Shown: positions 1-10,962 of the stretch, piece after piece
Layout of the letters: each line of letters starts with the position of its first letter
How positions within the stretch are numbered: the stretch's first letter is position 1
Source of the DNA: an uncultured Pseudomonadota bacterium
Lineage (GTDB): Bacteria > Pseudomonadota > Alphaproteobacteria > RF32 > CAG-239
Length of the DNA: 61,960 nucleotides
Assembly: GCA_902495305.1 (NCBI GenBank)
Contig: CABUWG010000004.1
Location: 1-61,960, forward strand
Reading direction: 5' to 3'
Position numbers and translations under genes: made by a program
Notes under the pieces: generated by a model
What the model saw: the letters and a program-made list of their open reading frames with translations, nothing else
Told to the model about the DNA's origin: nothing
Database searches by the model: none

Positions 1-91
1 AACCCCGCTCCGTCATTATCCGGTCTAATTCCTGATTGCAATAAGCCCGAAAGTTTTTATACCATTTTTTTCTATATTCTCTTGATAACAT
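1..91 (-). CDS. small XRE/Cro-type HTH protein, N-terminal 30 codons only (gene continues beyond window start)
   Basis: Minus-strand ATG at 91..89 is preceded by AAGGAG. It reads MLSREYRKKWYKNFRAYCNQELDRIMTERG, identical to the N-terminus of ORF 10488..10748. Confidence 0.7.
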   Translation of the reverse strand, partial: MLSREYRKKWYKNFRAYCNQELDRIMTERG

Positions 92-113
92 TTTTTAGCT
101 CCTTGATTTTGTT

Positions 114-275
114 AAAACAAAATCCGCCTAAAAAATAGGCGGATGGAGCTAGAAAACTGCTTAGACACAGTCATGGTTATTCGTTGCGCAAGCGCACTTA
201 TTTCCCAATACTCCACCCGAAGTGGAATTAATCTAAGAGATGTTTTCTAGACACCACAGTCCGTCTCCAGACTGC
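114..275 (-). ncRNA. candidate structured leader RNA, copy 1 (three-way junction plus intrinsic terminator) upstream of the XRE gene
   Basis: Paralog of 10774..10927. Outer helix CUAGAAAAC/GUUUUCUAG (250..242 with 157..149) is identical and the 5' GNRA hairpin is near-identical (one C-G to U-G wobble). Internal helices differ from copy 2 by compensatory substitutions. Terminator AUCCGCCU-AUUUUUU-AGGCGGAU followed by UUUUGUUUU lies at 144..114. Confidence 0.6.
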
Positions 276-282
276 GAAAATT

Positions 283-310
283 ATAATAAACGTATCTAAG
301 CTTTTTGCAA
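283..310 (-). promoter_or_regulatory. sigma70-like promoter for the leader RNA (copy 1)
   Basis: Minus strand has TTGCAA (310..305), a 16-nt spacer and TATTAT (288..283). The hexamers are the same as in copy 2. Confidence 0.45.
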
Positions 311-5622: not shown

Positions 5623-6249
5623 TCATTTGCTTTTTATTTGCAGCAGCGCATAAACGTCTTCTCCGCAAAGGGTATCAAAATGCTGTTTTAAGGGCAGGGC
5701 GTCGCGAATCAGGTTTTGTTTTTGTCTGGCCGAAAGATGATAGCGTCCGGCAATTCCTTCTGCCCGCTGTTCGATTGTTACAAAGTTGAACCCTTCGGTC
5801 AGCATATCGCAAAGCTGGATCAGGCGGTCATAGTCATCATAAACAAGCCGGGCTAATTTTTCTTTTGCCCAGCAGAGCCAGTCTGCGGGATAATTATATT
5901 CGTCATCCGAAAAATCTTTGATATGAAACGTATGCGTCAGGCAAATACGGGCAACATCATCATAGCCTAATGCCGTCATTTCCTCATATCCTTCACGGGC
6001 ATGAAAGCGGTTTTCTTCCCGTTCGTTAATTCTTTTGCCAAAATCATGCAGCAAGCCGAGAACATAAGCTTTTTGCGCGTCCAAGGCCGGAACTTTTTCT
6101 GCTATTATTTTAGCAAAACGGGCAACGCCGCGGGTATGAAAAACGTAGGCGTCGCGATCTTTGAAAGGGTAGGGTTTGGACAGGCGGTTAAGAATTACCG
6201 CATGCCAGAGTTTCTCGGCCGTGACCAGATCCGGAAATTTGGGTTTCAT
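5623..6249 (-). CDS. HD/HDIG-domain phosphohydrolase, paralog 1 of 3
   Basis: 208 aa with H...LGLLHDFGKR...FHAREG...LTHTF. It aligns with ORFs 6188..6877 and 6906..7535. Confidence 0.8.
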   Translation of the reverse strand: MKPKFPDLVTAEKLWHAVILNRLSKPYPFKDRDAYVFHTRGVARFAKIIAEKVPALDAQKAYVLGLLHDFGKRINEREENRFHAREGYEEMTALGYDDVARICLTHTFHIKDFSDDEYNYPADWLCWAKEKLARLVYDDYDRLIQLCDMLTEGFNFVTIEQRAEGIAGRYHLSARQKQNLIRDALPLKQHFDTLCGEDVYALLQIKSK

Positions 6250-6877
6250 CTAAGTTTACTCCGATTAGGTTATAAATATCCCGACCGCAAAGATGTTCAA
6301 AATATGACTTAATCCGGCACAAATGTTTCACGTGAATCAAAAGGTTTGGATTGTTATATCGTCTGGCCAGACTGGCAAAACGATATTCTATCGAGCAAGT
6401 CGTGCCTTTATCATTCAAAACATCCGCCAGCTGTAACAACAGGTCATAATCATTATAGGTCACGTTTTTGAGATAGGCCTGACATTGCAGCAAATCTTCA
6501 TGCGGCTGGGTAAAAGTGTTAATATCAAAATTCTTATCATAAAAGCTGTGCGTTATGCAGATGCGGGCAACATCGTCATAGCCGAGCGCCGTCATCCATT
6601 CATAGCCGACGTTTGCATGAAAGCGGTGTTCCGCAAATTCATCAATGCAACGGCCGCAGTCATGGAGCAGCCCTAAAACATAGGCTTTTTCCGTATCTAA
6701 ATCAGGACAGAAAGCCGCAATTTTTTCAGCTATGGCTGCAACGGTATGGCAATGTTTGCGAAATTCGGCTTCCCATTCCGGTTTAAACGGATATTTGGTC
6801 GCATTACGTTTTTGAATCACTGTTTCAAAAATTCTATCTGCTTGTTGGCGCGTGGGATATAACCGATTCATTTTCAT
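6188..6877 (-). CDS. HD/HDIG-domain phosphohydrolase, paralog 2 of 3 (3' end overlaps paralog 1 by 62 nt)
   Basis: 229 aa with LGLLHDCGRC...FHANVG...ITHSF. Its C-terminal tail of about 20 aa has no counterpart in the other two paralogs. Confidence 0.75.
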   Translation of the reverse strand: MKMNRLYPTRQQADRIFETVIQKRNATKYPFKPEWEAEFRKHCHTVAAIAEKIAAFCPDLDTEKAYVLGLLHDCGRCIDEFAEHRFHANVGYEWMTALGYDDVARICITHSFYDKNFDINTFTQPHEDLLQCQAYLKNVTYNDYDLLLQLADVLNDKGTTCSIEYRFASLARRYNNPNLLIHVKHLCRIKSYFEHLCGRDIYNLIGVNLDETQISGSGHGRETLACGNS

Positions 6878-6905
6878 TACTTCTTTTTTAAATACATTGT
6901 TTAAA

Positions 6906-7535
6906 TTATACCGATATTTTCTGATCTATTTGCAACAGGTCATAAATATCACACCGGCATTTTTCATCAAAATATTTTTTTAGCTCATTCAGACGGCTGA
7001 CGGACATATTTACAATTTCATTATTTAAGTTATGACGTTTGGCGACGCTGTTAAAGCGATATTCTATCGTACACTGCTGTCCGCAATCGTTCAGAATATC
7101 CGCCAGCTGGATAAGATAATCATAGTCATCAAAAGAGATTTGTTTTAAGAGTTCTCTGCTCCGGATATAATCCTGCGGCTTCATCCGGTACATAGACAAG
7201 TTCAGCTGCGGTTCATAAAAACAATGCGTGAAAGCAATGCGGGCGGCAGACGGCATATTATTTTTAATAAGATAATCAAAACCGGTCAGACCGTGAAAAG
7301 TTCCTTCGCTTCGTTCATCGCTTATTCTGCCGGCATCATGAAGCAGGCCTAAAATATATGACTTTTCCGGATTCAAATTTTGAGCGGCCGAGGCGATTTT
7401 TTCTGAAATATAAGCAACAGACAGGCAATGGTTTTTAAATTTTTGTTCGACTTCCGGCGTAAAGGGGCAAGCCGATTTTCTGCGGACGCTCAGTACTGTA
7501 TCTAATAAATTTTGTGCTTTTTCTAATTCTGTCAT
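6906..7535 (-). CDS. HD/HDIG-domain phosphohydrolase, paralog 3 of 3
   Basis: 209 aa with LGLLHDAGRI...FHGLTG...FTHCF. Confidence 0.8.
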   Translation of the reverse strand: MTELEKAQNLLDTVLSVRRKSACPFTPEVEQKFKNHCLSVAYISEKIASAAQNLNPEKSYILGLLHDAGRISDERSEGTFHGLTGFDYLIKNNMPSAARIAFTHCFYEPQLNLSMYRMKPQDYIRSRELLKQISFDDYDYLIQLADILNDCGQQCTIEYRFNSVAKRHNLNNEIVNMSVSRLNELKKYFDEKCRCDIYDLLQIDQKISV

Positions 7536-9932: not shown

Positions 9933-10238
9933 GTCATTCTGAGTGCAACGAAGAATCCAGTCAGATAAATCAGCTATATTATTAAACTGGATCCTTCGCT
10001 TCGCTCAGGATGACAAAGAAAGAGGCTCAGAATGACCCGTGCGACGGGTGGCGGTCGGGAGGCCGACGGCCGTTAGTTGTCAGCTCACTGCCTAGAGGGT
10101 CGCATTGCTATGGCGAAATGTGTGGGAGAGGAAGTGCTTTGAAGCACTGTCATTCTCGGGCTTGACCCGAGAATCCATAAAGATAATAGCACTGTACTTG
10201 TTTCCTTATGGATTGCCGGATCGAAGTCCGGCAATGAC
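9933..10238. repeat. cluster of short GTCATT...AATCC-type hairpin elements and other short repeats
   Basis: Copies lie at 9933..9960, 9987..10014 (inverted), 10025..10036 (partial), 10149..10176 and 10210..10238 (inverted). Direct repeats of gctNtggcgaaatgYgtgggagaggaagtgctttgaagc lie at about 10104..10148 and 10336..10380. Confidence 0.6.
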
Positions 10239-10458
10239 CTGCACGGCAGGTGCGCGGCAATGTCATCAGCAATGTGCTCCAGAAACCGCGGCCGAACGTC
10301 GGCGACGGTCGGTTTGTACAGTGCCTTGAAACCCGCGTTGCTGTGGCGAAATGCGTGGGAGAGGAAGTGCTTTGAAGCCTAACTCCCCCTCTTAGCAAAG
10401 AGGAGGAAAAAGAAAGGTGCTCTGGCGGGGGTTGTGGGGAAGGATGTACTTTGAAATG

Positions 10459-10486
10459 AAAAAAGCGGGAGAGTGTCCCGCTTTTT
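10459..10486 (-). terminator. intrinsic terminator after the XRE gene
   Basis: Hairpin agcggga/tcccgct (10464..10470 with 10476..10482). It is flanked by an A-run and a T-run and starts 2 nt after the stop codon at 10488..10490. Confidence 0.6.
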
Positions 10487-10487
10487 C

Positions 10488-10748
10488 TTATTGCCATGGA
10501 GAGGTTTGGGCATCGGACAATTTGATATCAAACACCTTGTCGAAGAAAGAGAACAAATATACGTATTCATCCATACGCAGGTTGCCCTTATTTTTCCTTA
10601 ATCTTTCTATTTTTCCTTCCAAAAAGTCTATATGATTAGACAGCTCGGCGCTTGTCAAACCCCGTTCCGTCATTATCCGGTCTAATTCCTGATTACAATA
10701 AGCCCGAAAGTTCTTATACCATTTTTTTCTATATTCTCTTGATAACAT
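10488..10748 (-). CDS. small XRE/Cro-type HTH protein (86 aa)
   Basis: The segment LDRIMTERGLTSAELSNHIDFLEGKIERLRKNKGNLRMDEY fits an HTH_3-like helix-turn-helix. AAGGAG lies upstream of the ATG. There is a second copy at the window start. Confidence 0.75.
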   Translation of the reverse strand: MLSREYRKKWYKNFRAYCNQELDRIMTERGLTSAELSNHIDFLEGKIERLRKNKGNLRMDEYVYLFSFFDKVFDIKLSDAQTSPWQ

Positions 10749-10773
10749 TTTATTTTAGCTCCTTGATTTTGTT

Positions 10774-10927
10774 AAAACAAAACCACCCGATAAAGGGTGG
10801 CGGAGCTAGAAAACTGCGATAAATCAGTCACCGTTATTCGCCCGCAAAGCGGCTTATTTCCGGTACTCCGCCAAATGCGGAATTTATCGAGATGTTTTCT
10901 AGACACCACAGTCCGTCTCCGGACTGC
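10774..10927 (-). ncRNA. candidate structured leader RNA, copy 2 (three-way junction plus intrinsic terminator) upstream of the XRE gene
   Basis: 5' hairpin CAGUCCG-GAGA-CGGACUG. Outer helix pairs 10902..10894 with 10814..10806. Inner helix CGAUAAA/UUUAUCG closes the junction. Hairpin UCCGC-AUUUG-GCGGA is present. Terminator CCACCC-UUUAUC-GGGUGG plus UUUUGUUUU lies at 10800..10774. Covariation with copy 1 supports the fold. Confidence 0.6.
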
Positions 10928-10934
10928 GAGGTTT

Positions 10935-10962
10935 ATAATAAACGAATCTATGGTTTTTGCAA
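10935..10962 (-). promoter_or_regulatory. sigma70-like promoter for the leader RNA (copy 2)
   Basis: Minus strand has TTGCAA (10962..10957), a 16-nt spacer and TATTAT (10940..10935). It starts 11 nt after the mnmE stop. Confidence 0.45.

Follow-up and report, generated by a model that had tools for sequence, protein, structure and literature searches.

A structured leader RNA with two mutually exclusive, covarying folds upstream of small helix-turn-helix genes in uncultured gut Alphaproteobacteria: a candidate transcription-attenuation switch

Two copies of a structured RNA with two alternative folds

Contig CABUWG010000004.1 of an uncultured Pseudomonadota bacterium was analysed over a stretch of 61,960 nt, to which we refer as the window. 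Its minus strand carries two copies (A and B) of a structured leader RNA of approximately 160 nt, each with its own promoter, two mutually exclusive folds that both show covariation, an intrinsic terminator and a gene for a small helix-turn-helix (HTH) protein behind it. We propose that each copy is a cis-acting terminator/antiterminator (transcription-attenuation) switch for the gene behind it that responds to an effector, and assign this reading a probability of roughly 60%. A first-pass annotation had described the two copies from the sequence alone. Its observation was confirmed, and its interpretation as a cis-regulator is supported.

The promoters, the 5′ hairpin, the helices P1 to P5, the terminators and the alternative pairing were all found at the minus-strand positions given by that annotation, as revealed by sequence inspection, scans and RNAfold (Table 1). 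In RNAfold the two copies adopt an identical architecture, with energies of −65.3 and −61.1 kcal/mol (z = −5.2 and −5.8), and none of 200 shuffled sequences folded as well. The compensating changes described for the helices were also recovered. Copies A and B differ at twelve of the 40 model pairs, with both nucleotides exchanged at 11, and canonical pairing is kept at all twelve; the two versions of P2, for example, are CGAUAAA/UUUAUCG and CUUAGA/UCUAAG. The flanks (promoter, linker, post-terminator tail, Shine-Dalgarno (SD) sequence and the first 30 codons) are near-identical between the copies. The 5′ end of RNA A probably lies about 7 nt past the promoter, at the foot of the hairpin P0, and the promoter of copy B comes after the terminator (366-390) of the gene before it. 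Terminator-like hairpins were placed by a consensus scan at 10801..10782 and at 144..122, with UUUGUUUU after each. In copy A the 5′ base of the terminator (10798-10801) is common to the antiterminator. A further alternative hairpin, Pa (GGUGU...ACAUC), was absent from the first-pass annotation.

Rfam 15 at gathering thresholds assigned no family anywhere in the window, including the two copies. The label "unclassified" was therefore retained for formal membership, and is qualified by the likeness of the antiterminator fold to the small RNA (sRNA) sRNA-Xcc1 (RF02221) treated below. A covariance model of the terminator-compatible fold A (R1, built from alignment A3) scored 142 and 138 bits for the two copies (E about 1e-28) and detected no copy besides these two in the whole 62-kb window.

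Relatives of the RNA and covariation of both folds

An exact-pattern scan of one genome per species with the core ATAAG..GAAT..RACTG..CAGTTTT yielded at least 109 loci. Model R1 confirmed at least 105 copies in 100 sources, and chance pattern matches were discarded. Nearly all hosts are metagenome-assembled genomes (MAGs) from gut or rumen labelled "Alphaproteobacteria bacterium" or "proteobacterium", e.g. CAG:495. The MAG MGBC133411 has at least 12 copies, spread over 12 different contigs. Another 71 unique cores came from a metagenome scan, many of them labelled human gut. No true copy was found on viral contigs of IMG/VR; the single pattern match there was rejected by the covariance model as a chance hit. 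A promoter of the RNA itself (TTGnnn-16..18-TAnnnT), ending about 7 nt before P0, was present in 82 of 98 unique upstream regions. The terminator directly follows the linker in approximately 90 of 100 unique copies, and its stem begins at position 5 or 6 of the linker motif CUCCNCC in 86 of 100 unique sequences.

Covariation was measured on 103 distinct sequences, against 500 shuffles and against slid registers. In fold A (P0-P5) 97.2% of 4076 cells pair, and double compensatory changes occur in 28 of 40 pairs, including every pair of P0 (7/7), P2 (7/7) and P5 (3/3). The covariation score was 0.64, compared to 0.18 for shuffles and ≤0.09 for slid registers, and none of the 500 shuffles reached any of five measures. 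Helices P1 to P5 were also found by RNAalifold on an independent MAFFT alignment.

Fold B was absent from the model used, so that the test of its covariation is unbiased. The 3′ strand of P3, GGNGGAG, pairs either with the 5′ strand of P3 or with the linker CUCCNCC, and its variable N covaries with both. At the antiterminator pair 106-189 we counted 45 UA, 25 GC, 15 CG, 9 AU, 5 GU and 2 UG; thus 101 of 103 sequences pair, two are unpaired and all four Watson-Crick pair types are used. The competing P3 pair 94-106 performs worse, with 10 unpaired sequences. In Pa 96.5% of the cells pair, and its variants keep the pairing as GGAG/CUCC (three sequences), GGCG/CGUC (one) or GAUG/CAUC (two). As its loop and 3′ strand overlap the 5′ strand of P1 (10894-10902), Pa can form in fold B only. 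RNAalifold suggested a GGUG/CUCC extension of P1. This candidate was rejected: it is invariant, and it is contradicted by the two GAUG variants, both of which still satisfy Pa, for which reason Pa is preferred. The hairpin GACUG/CAGUU (H2) is nearly invariant and 99.8% paired. The strings GGAGU, GACUG and CAGUUUU each have different pairing partners in the two folds, and these dual roles explain why they do not vary. The internal loop GA(A/U)AUAAG / CGAAUAA alone stays single-stranded in fold A and fold B alike. Modelling and homologue search, proposed as checks by the first-pass annotation, thus returned more than 100 homologues with covariation above shuffles, and the two mutually exclusive covarying structures before the terminator hold in more than 100 unique members.

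These data also bear on the possibility that the RNA is the remnant of a repeat or mobile element without function at the RNA level. Its multiple copies, their position between unrelated housekeeping genes and the recombinant appearance of some copies would fit such an origin. On the other hand, compensatory covariation is massive in every helix and on one strand only, and neither transposases nor terminal repeats are associated with the copies. A functionless repeat is extremely improbable and was excluded because of the covariation.

Three copies (L128, L069, L074) combine 5′ and 3′ halves from different variants, with P1 and P2 unpaired; they are either paralogue recombinants or MAG assembly chimeras at the repeat. 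A long palindromic repeat at L022 3518-3642 matches Wolbachia WsnRNA46 below threshold (50 bits against a gathering score of 65), and a similar GTCAAGCCCGAGAATGAC repeat breaks the HTH open reading frame (ORF) downstream of the RNA in L101. This suggests a family of palindromic repeat elements in these MAGs.

Genes located downstream of the RNA

A co-oriented ORF preceded by a strong SD sequence begins about 57-125 nt past the core. Approximately 90% of the copies precede small XRE-type proteins of many subfamilies. The 111 unique downstream proteins of this kind, mostly 71-113 aa where complete, form one BLASTP single-linkage cluster, and several subfamilies pass Pfam HTH_3. The 86-aa protein behind copy A, annotated as XRE in the first pass, belongs to this cluster (1e-4), together with HTH_3-positive proteins behind other RNA copies. 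Its ORF is present as annotated; the XRE label by itself has only a sub-threshold Pfam match (best HTH_26, 19.3 bits, cut-off 22). A PDB sequence search with the protein gave nothing significant, and the AlphaFold model was uninformative (pLDDT 58). Just 10 homologue clusters of the 86-aa protein exist among 5.8 billion proteins, one of them named from an Alphaproteobacteria MAG. The same RNA lies about 230 nt upstream of every homologue gene for which upstream DNA was recovered. The neighbours of these loci vary (virB10/virB11, RNase J, dnaK, fliP). The only promoter-like match that a scan detected between RNA and ORF lies in copy A (TTAACA-17-TAAAAT, 10775..10747). It was rejected as an ORF promoter, since it extends into the start codon and has no counterpart in copy B.

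Besides the HTH proteins, 13 unique downstream proteins carry a signal peptide, and both of the two that were scanned with Pfam are BspA-type LRR_5 (leucine-rich repeat) proteins. One downstream protein is prepilin-like. With such unrelated gene classes behind it, the RNA is not bound to one product.

The connection to a single protein superfamily raises the question of autoregulation, in which the small HTH-like product or a paralogue would bind the RNA and set termination. That about nine in ten copies precede one HTH superfamily fits this idea, as does sRNA-Xcc1, which likewise stands before genes of small nucleic-acid-binding proteins (Ant/BRO, and ORF6N and SymE according to the literature). 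The same RNA with the same invariant loops, however, also precedes LRR surface proteins and a pilin-like protein, the HTH proteins are diverse (33-93% identity) while the RNA loops are invariant, and XRE domains bind DNA. We regard an autoregulatory protein-binding leader as distinctly unlikely.

Two conserved elements were noticed in subsets of these loci. Signal-peptide proteins behind the RNA in rumen-type MAGs (L056, L090, L127, L036), some of them of the BspA-type LRR_5 kind, share the C-terminal motif (K)RIYTI(E/D)EAN, which extends as xVAGxxNxVSI(R/K)YR in three complete proteins of the set and may be a sorting or secretion signal. Loci of the MLNKKQ... HTH subfamily (L044, L117, L129) contain an additional conserved element of about 60 nt with a hairpin (CAAGCTGGTGGCAGCTTGACCCCACAAACACGGCGTGTTTGACG...) between terminator and SD, which may represent a second regulatory module.

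A proposed terminator/antiterminator switch and its alternatives

According to the proposed mechanism each copy would be transcribed independently as a leader RNA. In fold A, P0 would be followed by P1, which surrounds P2, which in turn surrounds the P3 hairpin and the P4-P5 arm. This fold would leave the linker CUCCNCC free, so that the intrinsic terminator could form, transcription would end about 25 nt before the SD sequence and a short RNA would be released. In fold B, Pa would sequester the 5′ strand of P1, and the 3′ strand of P3 would pair with the linker to form an outer helix around the P4-P5 arm and H2. With the terminator stem starting at position 5 or 6 of CUCCNCC, fold B removes 2-3 bp next to the U-tract. 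Loss of this bottom of the stem would allow read-through into the small HTH gene. We infer that the switch is regulated, in which direction it acts and that an effector exists: an effector would shift the balance, most simply by binding and stabilising the Xcc1-like fold B and thereby turning expression on. Such an effector may be a small molecule, a protein or an RNA.

Fold A with the terminator is the minimum-free-energy structure in both window copies. A forced antiterminator raises the energy by about 10 kcal/mol for the full-length sequence and by 3.3-6.8 kcal/mol if the sequence ends before the 3′ arm of the terminator, which is the decision point. When the antiterminator was forced, RNAfold formed H2 unprompted in both copies and Pa unprompted in copy B. 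As fold A is favoured energetically, termination would be the default, and read-through would by these calculations need kinetic or effector assistance.

The linker sequence AGCUCC is perfectly complementary to GGAGCU in the SD region of the downstream gene (10802-10807/10757-10762 and 145-150/97-102, minus strand). It could serve as an anti-SD sequence once fold A has formed in a read-through transcript. Neither string varies, which places this pairing beyond a test by covariation.

Several points weigh against an attenuation switch. The 5′ and 3′ ends of the RNA and the read-through are deduced from sequence. Antiterminator and terminator overlap by just 2-3 nt, and with terminator stems of 9-10 bp fold B may weaken rather than abolish termination. 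H2 and the GGUG/CUCC extension of P1 are invariant and so beyond the covariation test. The target genes are mostly regulators and give no clue to a ligand. Moreover, for the closest relative, sRNA-Xcc1, a discrete RNA of 88 nt was detected, and it has been described as trans-acting (PMC2996969). Finally, tandem promoter-RNA-terminator units without an ORF between them (L092, L108) suit an sRNA gene equally well.

The last two points belong to an alternative in which the RNA is mainly a stand-alone sRNA, acting in trans or sequestering a protein. The terminator would then be its 3′ end, and constitutive, leaky read-through would express the HTH gene and fix the RNA:protein ratio as in type III toxin-antitoxin systems. 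Its own promoter and strong terminator, a 5′-terminal hairpin typical of stable sRNAs, the RNA-only tandem arrays of L092 (three units) and L108, at least 12 copies in one genome in the manner of sibling sRNAs and the single Northern band of about 100 nt reported for sRNA-Xcc1 (PMC2996969) are in line with this view. A pure sRNA, though, would not need a selected pairing that competes with the terminator base. Furthermore, a co-oriented ORF without a promoter of its own lies a short, constant distance behind the great majority of copies, and a conserved single-stranded seed is not evident besides the internal loop. Altogether we consider a stand-alone sRNA unlikely.

Tandem arrays are of two kinds. 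At L092 2795-3376 (three units) and L108 4527-4886 (at least two), whole units of promoter, RNA and terminator repeat about every 222 nt, with no ORF between them and an HTH gene after the last unit only. On metagenome contigs, RNA and HTH gene are repeated together with a period of about 520 nt, or 510-540 nt across the examples (L197 10161-11236, L183 1349-1942, L164 9236-9821). The 246-kb contig ERZ1673734.8 has at least five pattern matches.

A more specific form of the attenuation switch would be a true riboswitch for a small molecule or second messenger, with the internal loop and junctions as ligand pocket and the ligand selecting the fold. The core is aptamer-like in its covarying helices and its invariant junction and internal-loop nucleotides, and it is joined to a terminator/antiterminator platform. 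High copy number together with regulators, adhesin-like LRR proteins and a pilin-like protein as targets recalls regulons of the cyclic di-GMP (c-di-GMP) type. Nevertheless, the regulon lacks metabolic or transporter genes that would hint at a ligand, much of the "junction" conservation comes from dual pairing rather than from a pocket, and no known riboswitch class in Rfam matches. As a pointer to a ligand, the downstream gene set of XRE-like regulators, LRR_5 surface proteins and a prepilin-like protein is incoherent. A riboswitch in this strict sense is possible but doubtful. Riboswitch and autoregulatory leader are both sub-cases of the proposed switch and are separated by the nature of the effector. 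An attenuator with a leader peptide was rejected, since copy A contains neither an AUG nor an SD sequence from P0 to the terminator.

Features of the window and genomic context

Table 1 Positions of the RNA elements and associated genes in the window and of the bona fide sRNA-Xcc1 copies
Feature	Position	Strand	Sequence or remark	Basis
Copy A promoter	10962..10935	−	TTGCAA-16 nt-TATTAT	promoter scan
Copy A RNA, whole	about 10772-10927	−		sequence and fold
Copy A P0	10908..10927	−	5′-terminal hairpin GCAGUCCG-GAGA-CGGACUGU, GNRA loop	sequence, RNAfold
Copy A Pa	10891..10907	−	alternative hairpin GGUGU-(CUAGAAA)-ACAUC	pairing counts
Copy A fold-A core	10806..10902	−		RNAfold, RNAalifold, covariance model 138 bits, pair counts
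Copy A P1	10894-10902 with 10806-10814	−	CUAGAAAAC/GUUUUCUAG	sequence, fold
Copy A P2	10883-10889 with 10817-10823	−	part of fold-A core	
Copy A P3 hairpin	10867-10881	−	part of fold-A core	
Copy A P4-P5 arm	10830-10865	−	part of fold-A core	
Copy A internal loop of P4-P5 arm	10853-10860 / 10834-10841	−	GAAAUAAG / GCGAAUAA, conserved	
Copy A junctions	10825-10829; 10815-10816	−	GACUG; CA	
Copy A fold B	10798..10873	−	antiterminator, Xcc1-like three-way junction	model R2 85.6 bits
Copy A fold-B outer helix	10866-10873 with 10798-10805	−	UGGCGGAG with CUCCGCCA; encloses P4-P5 arm and hairpin GACUG...CAGUU	
Copy A terminator	10772..10801	−	GCCACCC-UUUAUC-GGGUGGU, then UUUGUUUU	terminator scan
Copy A SD	10759-10764	−	AAGGAG	
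Copy A ORF	10488-10748	−	86 aa, HTH-like; own terminator after ORF	
Copy B promoter	283..310	−	TTGCAA-16 nt-TATTAT	promoter scan
Copy B RNA, whole	112..275	−		covariance model 142 bits; R2 79.8 bits
Copy B P0	256-275	−		
Copy B Pa	251-255 with 239-243	−		
Copy B P1	242-250 with 149-157	−		
Copy B P2	232-237 with 160-165	−		
Copy B P3	212-226	−		
Copy B P4-P5 arm	173-209	−		
Copy B antiterminator	211-218 with 141-148	−		
Copy B terminator	122-144	−	U-tract to about 112	
Copy B SD	99-104	−		
Copy B SD and ORF	1..104	−	ATG at 89-91; first 30 codons only, continues beyond window	
Bona fide sRNA-Xcc1	L137 1198-1282			
Bona fide sRNA-Xcc1	L139 1201-1290			
Bona fide sRNA-Xcc1	L136 598-680			
Bona fide sRNA-Xcc1	L138 163-350 and 1186-1269			

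The genes of the window are arranged in the order mnmE, RNA with 86-aa gene, mnmG, three HD-domain genes, an EPSP-synthase-like gene, a PHP gene, rsmG, parA, ORFs of 349 and 91 aa, and again RNA with 86-aa gene. All 30 residues of the copy B ORF that lie within the window are the same as in copy A. The three HD-domain genes are tandem HD/HDOD paralogues (208, 229 and 209 aa; 5623-7535, minus strand) located between mnmG and the EPSP-synthase-like gene, within an otherwise origin-proximal housekeeping cluster. An ORF of 115 aa without Pfam match (10150-10497, minus strand) begins within the end of the 86-aa gene, spans its terminator and is probably spurious.

Novelty and significance

The RNA class is absent from Rfam 15 and from the literature searched. 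Within 200 of the 408 supplement files of a survey of structured RNAs from the human microbiome (PMC8040213), 15-mers of the motif had no match, a result that is not conclusive for the survey as a whole. This class of structured RNAs is large (more than 100 unique members, at least 12 copies per genome) and belongs to an uncultured gut lineage; its two switch states can both be read from covariation, a rarity. The RNA appears to gate a family of small XRE regulators and BspA-type surface proteins, and a signal acting through it would hence control much of the regulatory output of these bacteria.

Comparison with sRNA-Xcc1 and other known systems

For both copies and 15 relatives Rfam was also run in E-value mode. 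The only recurring match was sRNA-Xcc1, below its gathering score of 53. The Xcc1 model scored 33.5 bits for copy A (aligned 10791-10872), 30.1 for L033 and 26.9 for L011, always in the register of fold B, and had no match for copy B and 13 other loci, i.e. for 14 of the 17 members tested. Further sub-threshold hits of this search (Arrc14, RUF1, PrrF, L10 leader) were rejected as noise.

The reverse comparison used R2, a covariance model of fold B from alignment A6, and four bona fide Xcc1 RNAs that BLAST had retrieved and Rfam confirmed at 65-86 bits. R2 matched Xcc1 over its full length at the Rfam coordinates on a Pseudomonas aeruginosa plasmid (27.9 bits) and in the phages Aaphi23 (27.0 bits) and P13771 (17.8 bits), and missed one of the four, that of phage phi296. 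The best unrelated hit in a background of 124 kb of window sequence scored 13.7 bits. The fold-A model R1 recognised no true Xcc1 RNA.

Like sRNA-Xcc1, fold B is a three-way junction with the same order of elements. The 5′ side of the outer helix ends with GGAG-U and its 3′ side begins with CUCC. Hairpin 1 contains an internal loop rich in A, with AAUA... in its 5′ strand and GAAUA in its 3′ strand, and it is followed by hairpin 2 and a U-rich joiner. Outer helix and hairpin 1 of fold B covary in the new family, whereas hairpin 2 is invariant here and thus consistent only. Both RNAs have their own promoter region, and in both cases a gene for a small protein with a regulatory or DNA-binding role follows about 25-40 nt further on.

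There are also differences. Xcc1 was mapped by rapid amplification of cDNA ends as an 88-nt RNA starting from the outer helix, with neither 5′ extension nor terminator (PMC2996969). In the new family, by contrast, the position of the conserved promoter implies that the RNA begins about 75 nt before the outer helix. This adds a 5′ extension of about 75 nt (P0, Pa/P1-5′, P2-5′, P3-5′) that refolds the Xcc1-like domain, and a canonical intrinsic terminator is also present. The new family resides on chromosomes of gut Alphaproteobacteria, where the window copies lie upstream of small HTH genes between chromosomal housekeeping genes, while sRNA-Xcc1 is known from phages, plasmids and integron cassettes of Gamma- and Betaproteobacteria. 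Downstream genes are XRE-like in the former and Ant, BRO, ORF6N or SymE genes in the latter. In phages and the Pseudomonas plasmid, about 40 nt separate the true Xcc1 RNAs from the Ant or BRO gene behind them, and the literature also puts Xcc1 before symE in integron cassettes (10.1101/2025.06.18.660453) and before an ORF6N gene in APSE phages (10.1101/2020.03.17.996009). The phage copies belong to the antirepressor/immunity region, and in the Stx-type phage P13771 isrK and C4 RNAs are located in the same region, about 0.9 kb upstream of Xcc1.

By formal membership the new family is outside RF02221. Judged from sequence and predicted structure, its antiterminator fold would be a distant relative or, by convergence, a structural analogue of sRNA-Xcc1. 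sRNA-Xcc1 has been an orphan "trans-acting sRNA" since 2010. The link leads to the testable hypothesis that this orphan RNA before antirepressor genes of Shiga-toxin and other temperate phages may be cis-regulatory instead of, or besides, trans-acting. In a bolder version, which we offer as speculation and hold to be rather improbable, the Xcc1-like junction would act as aptamer and sense a signal of the cell, for instance a second messenger or a stress metabolite, the RNA with its 5′ anti-fold and terminator would be a new riboswitch class, and sRNA-Xcc1 would also be a cis-acting sensor. If this were true, the new class would govern a dozen or more small XRE regulators and adhesin-like surface proteins per genome, and sRNA-Xcc1 would control SymE-like and antirepressor (Ant/BRO) genes of temperate phages, Stx phages among them, and of plasmids and integron cassettes.

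Among other systems, terminator/antiterminator riboswitches and attenuators share with the RNA a structured leader, two exclusive folds, a terminator just before the SD sequence and several copies per genome. In contrast to them, no ligand, regulatory protein or leader peptide is identifiable, the targets are mainly transcription factors and every unit has its own promoter, even in tandem arrays. The order of promoter, structured RNA, terminator and protein gene also resembles type III toxin-antitoxin (ToxIN-like) and phage c4/IsrK loci. A type III system was rejected, as the RNA is a single structured unit of about 160 nt without short tandem repeats and the protein is HTH-like rather than an endoribonuclease toxin. 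A c4/IsrK locus was rejected because neither the C4 nor the isrK model matched in the window or the loci. From its predicted structure, the new family is best described as an Xcc1-like three-way junction combined with a refolding 5′ extension of about 75 nt and a canonical terminator.

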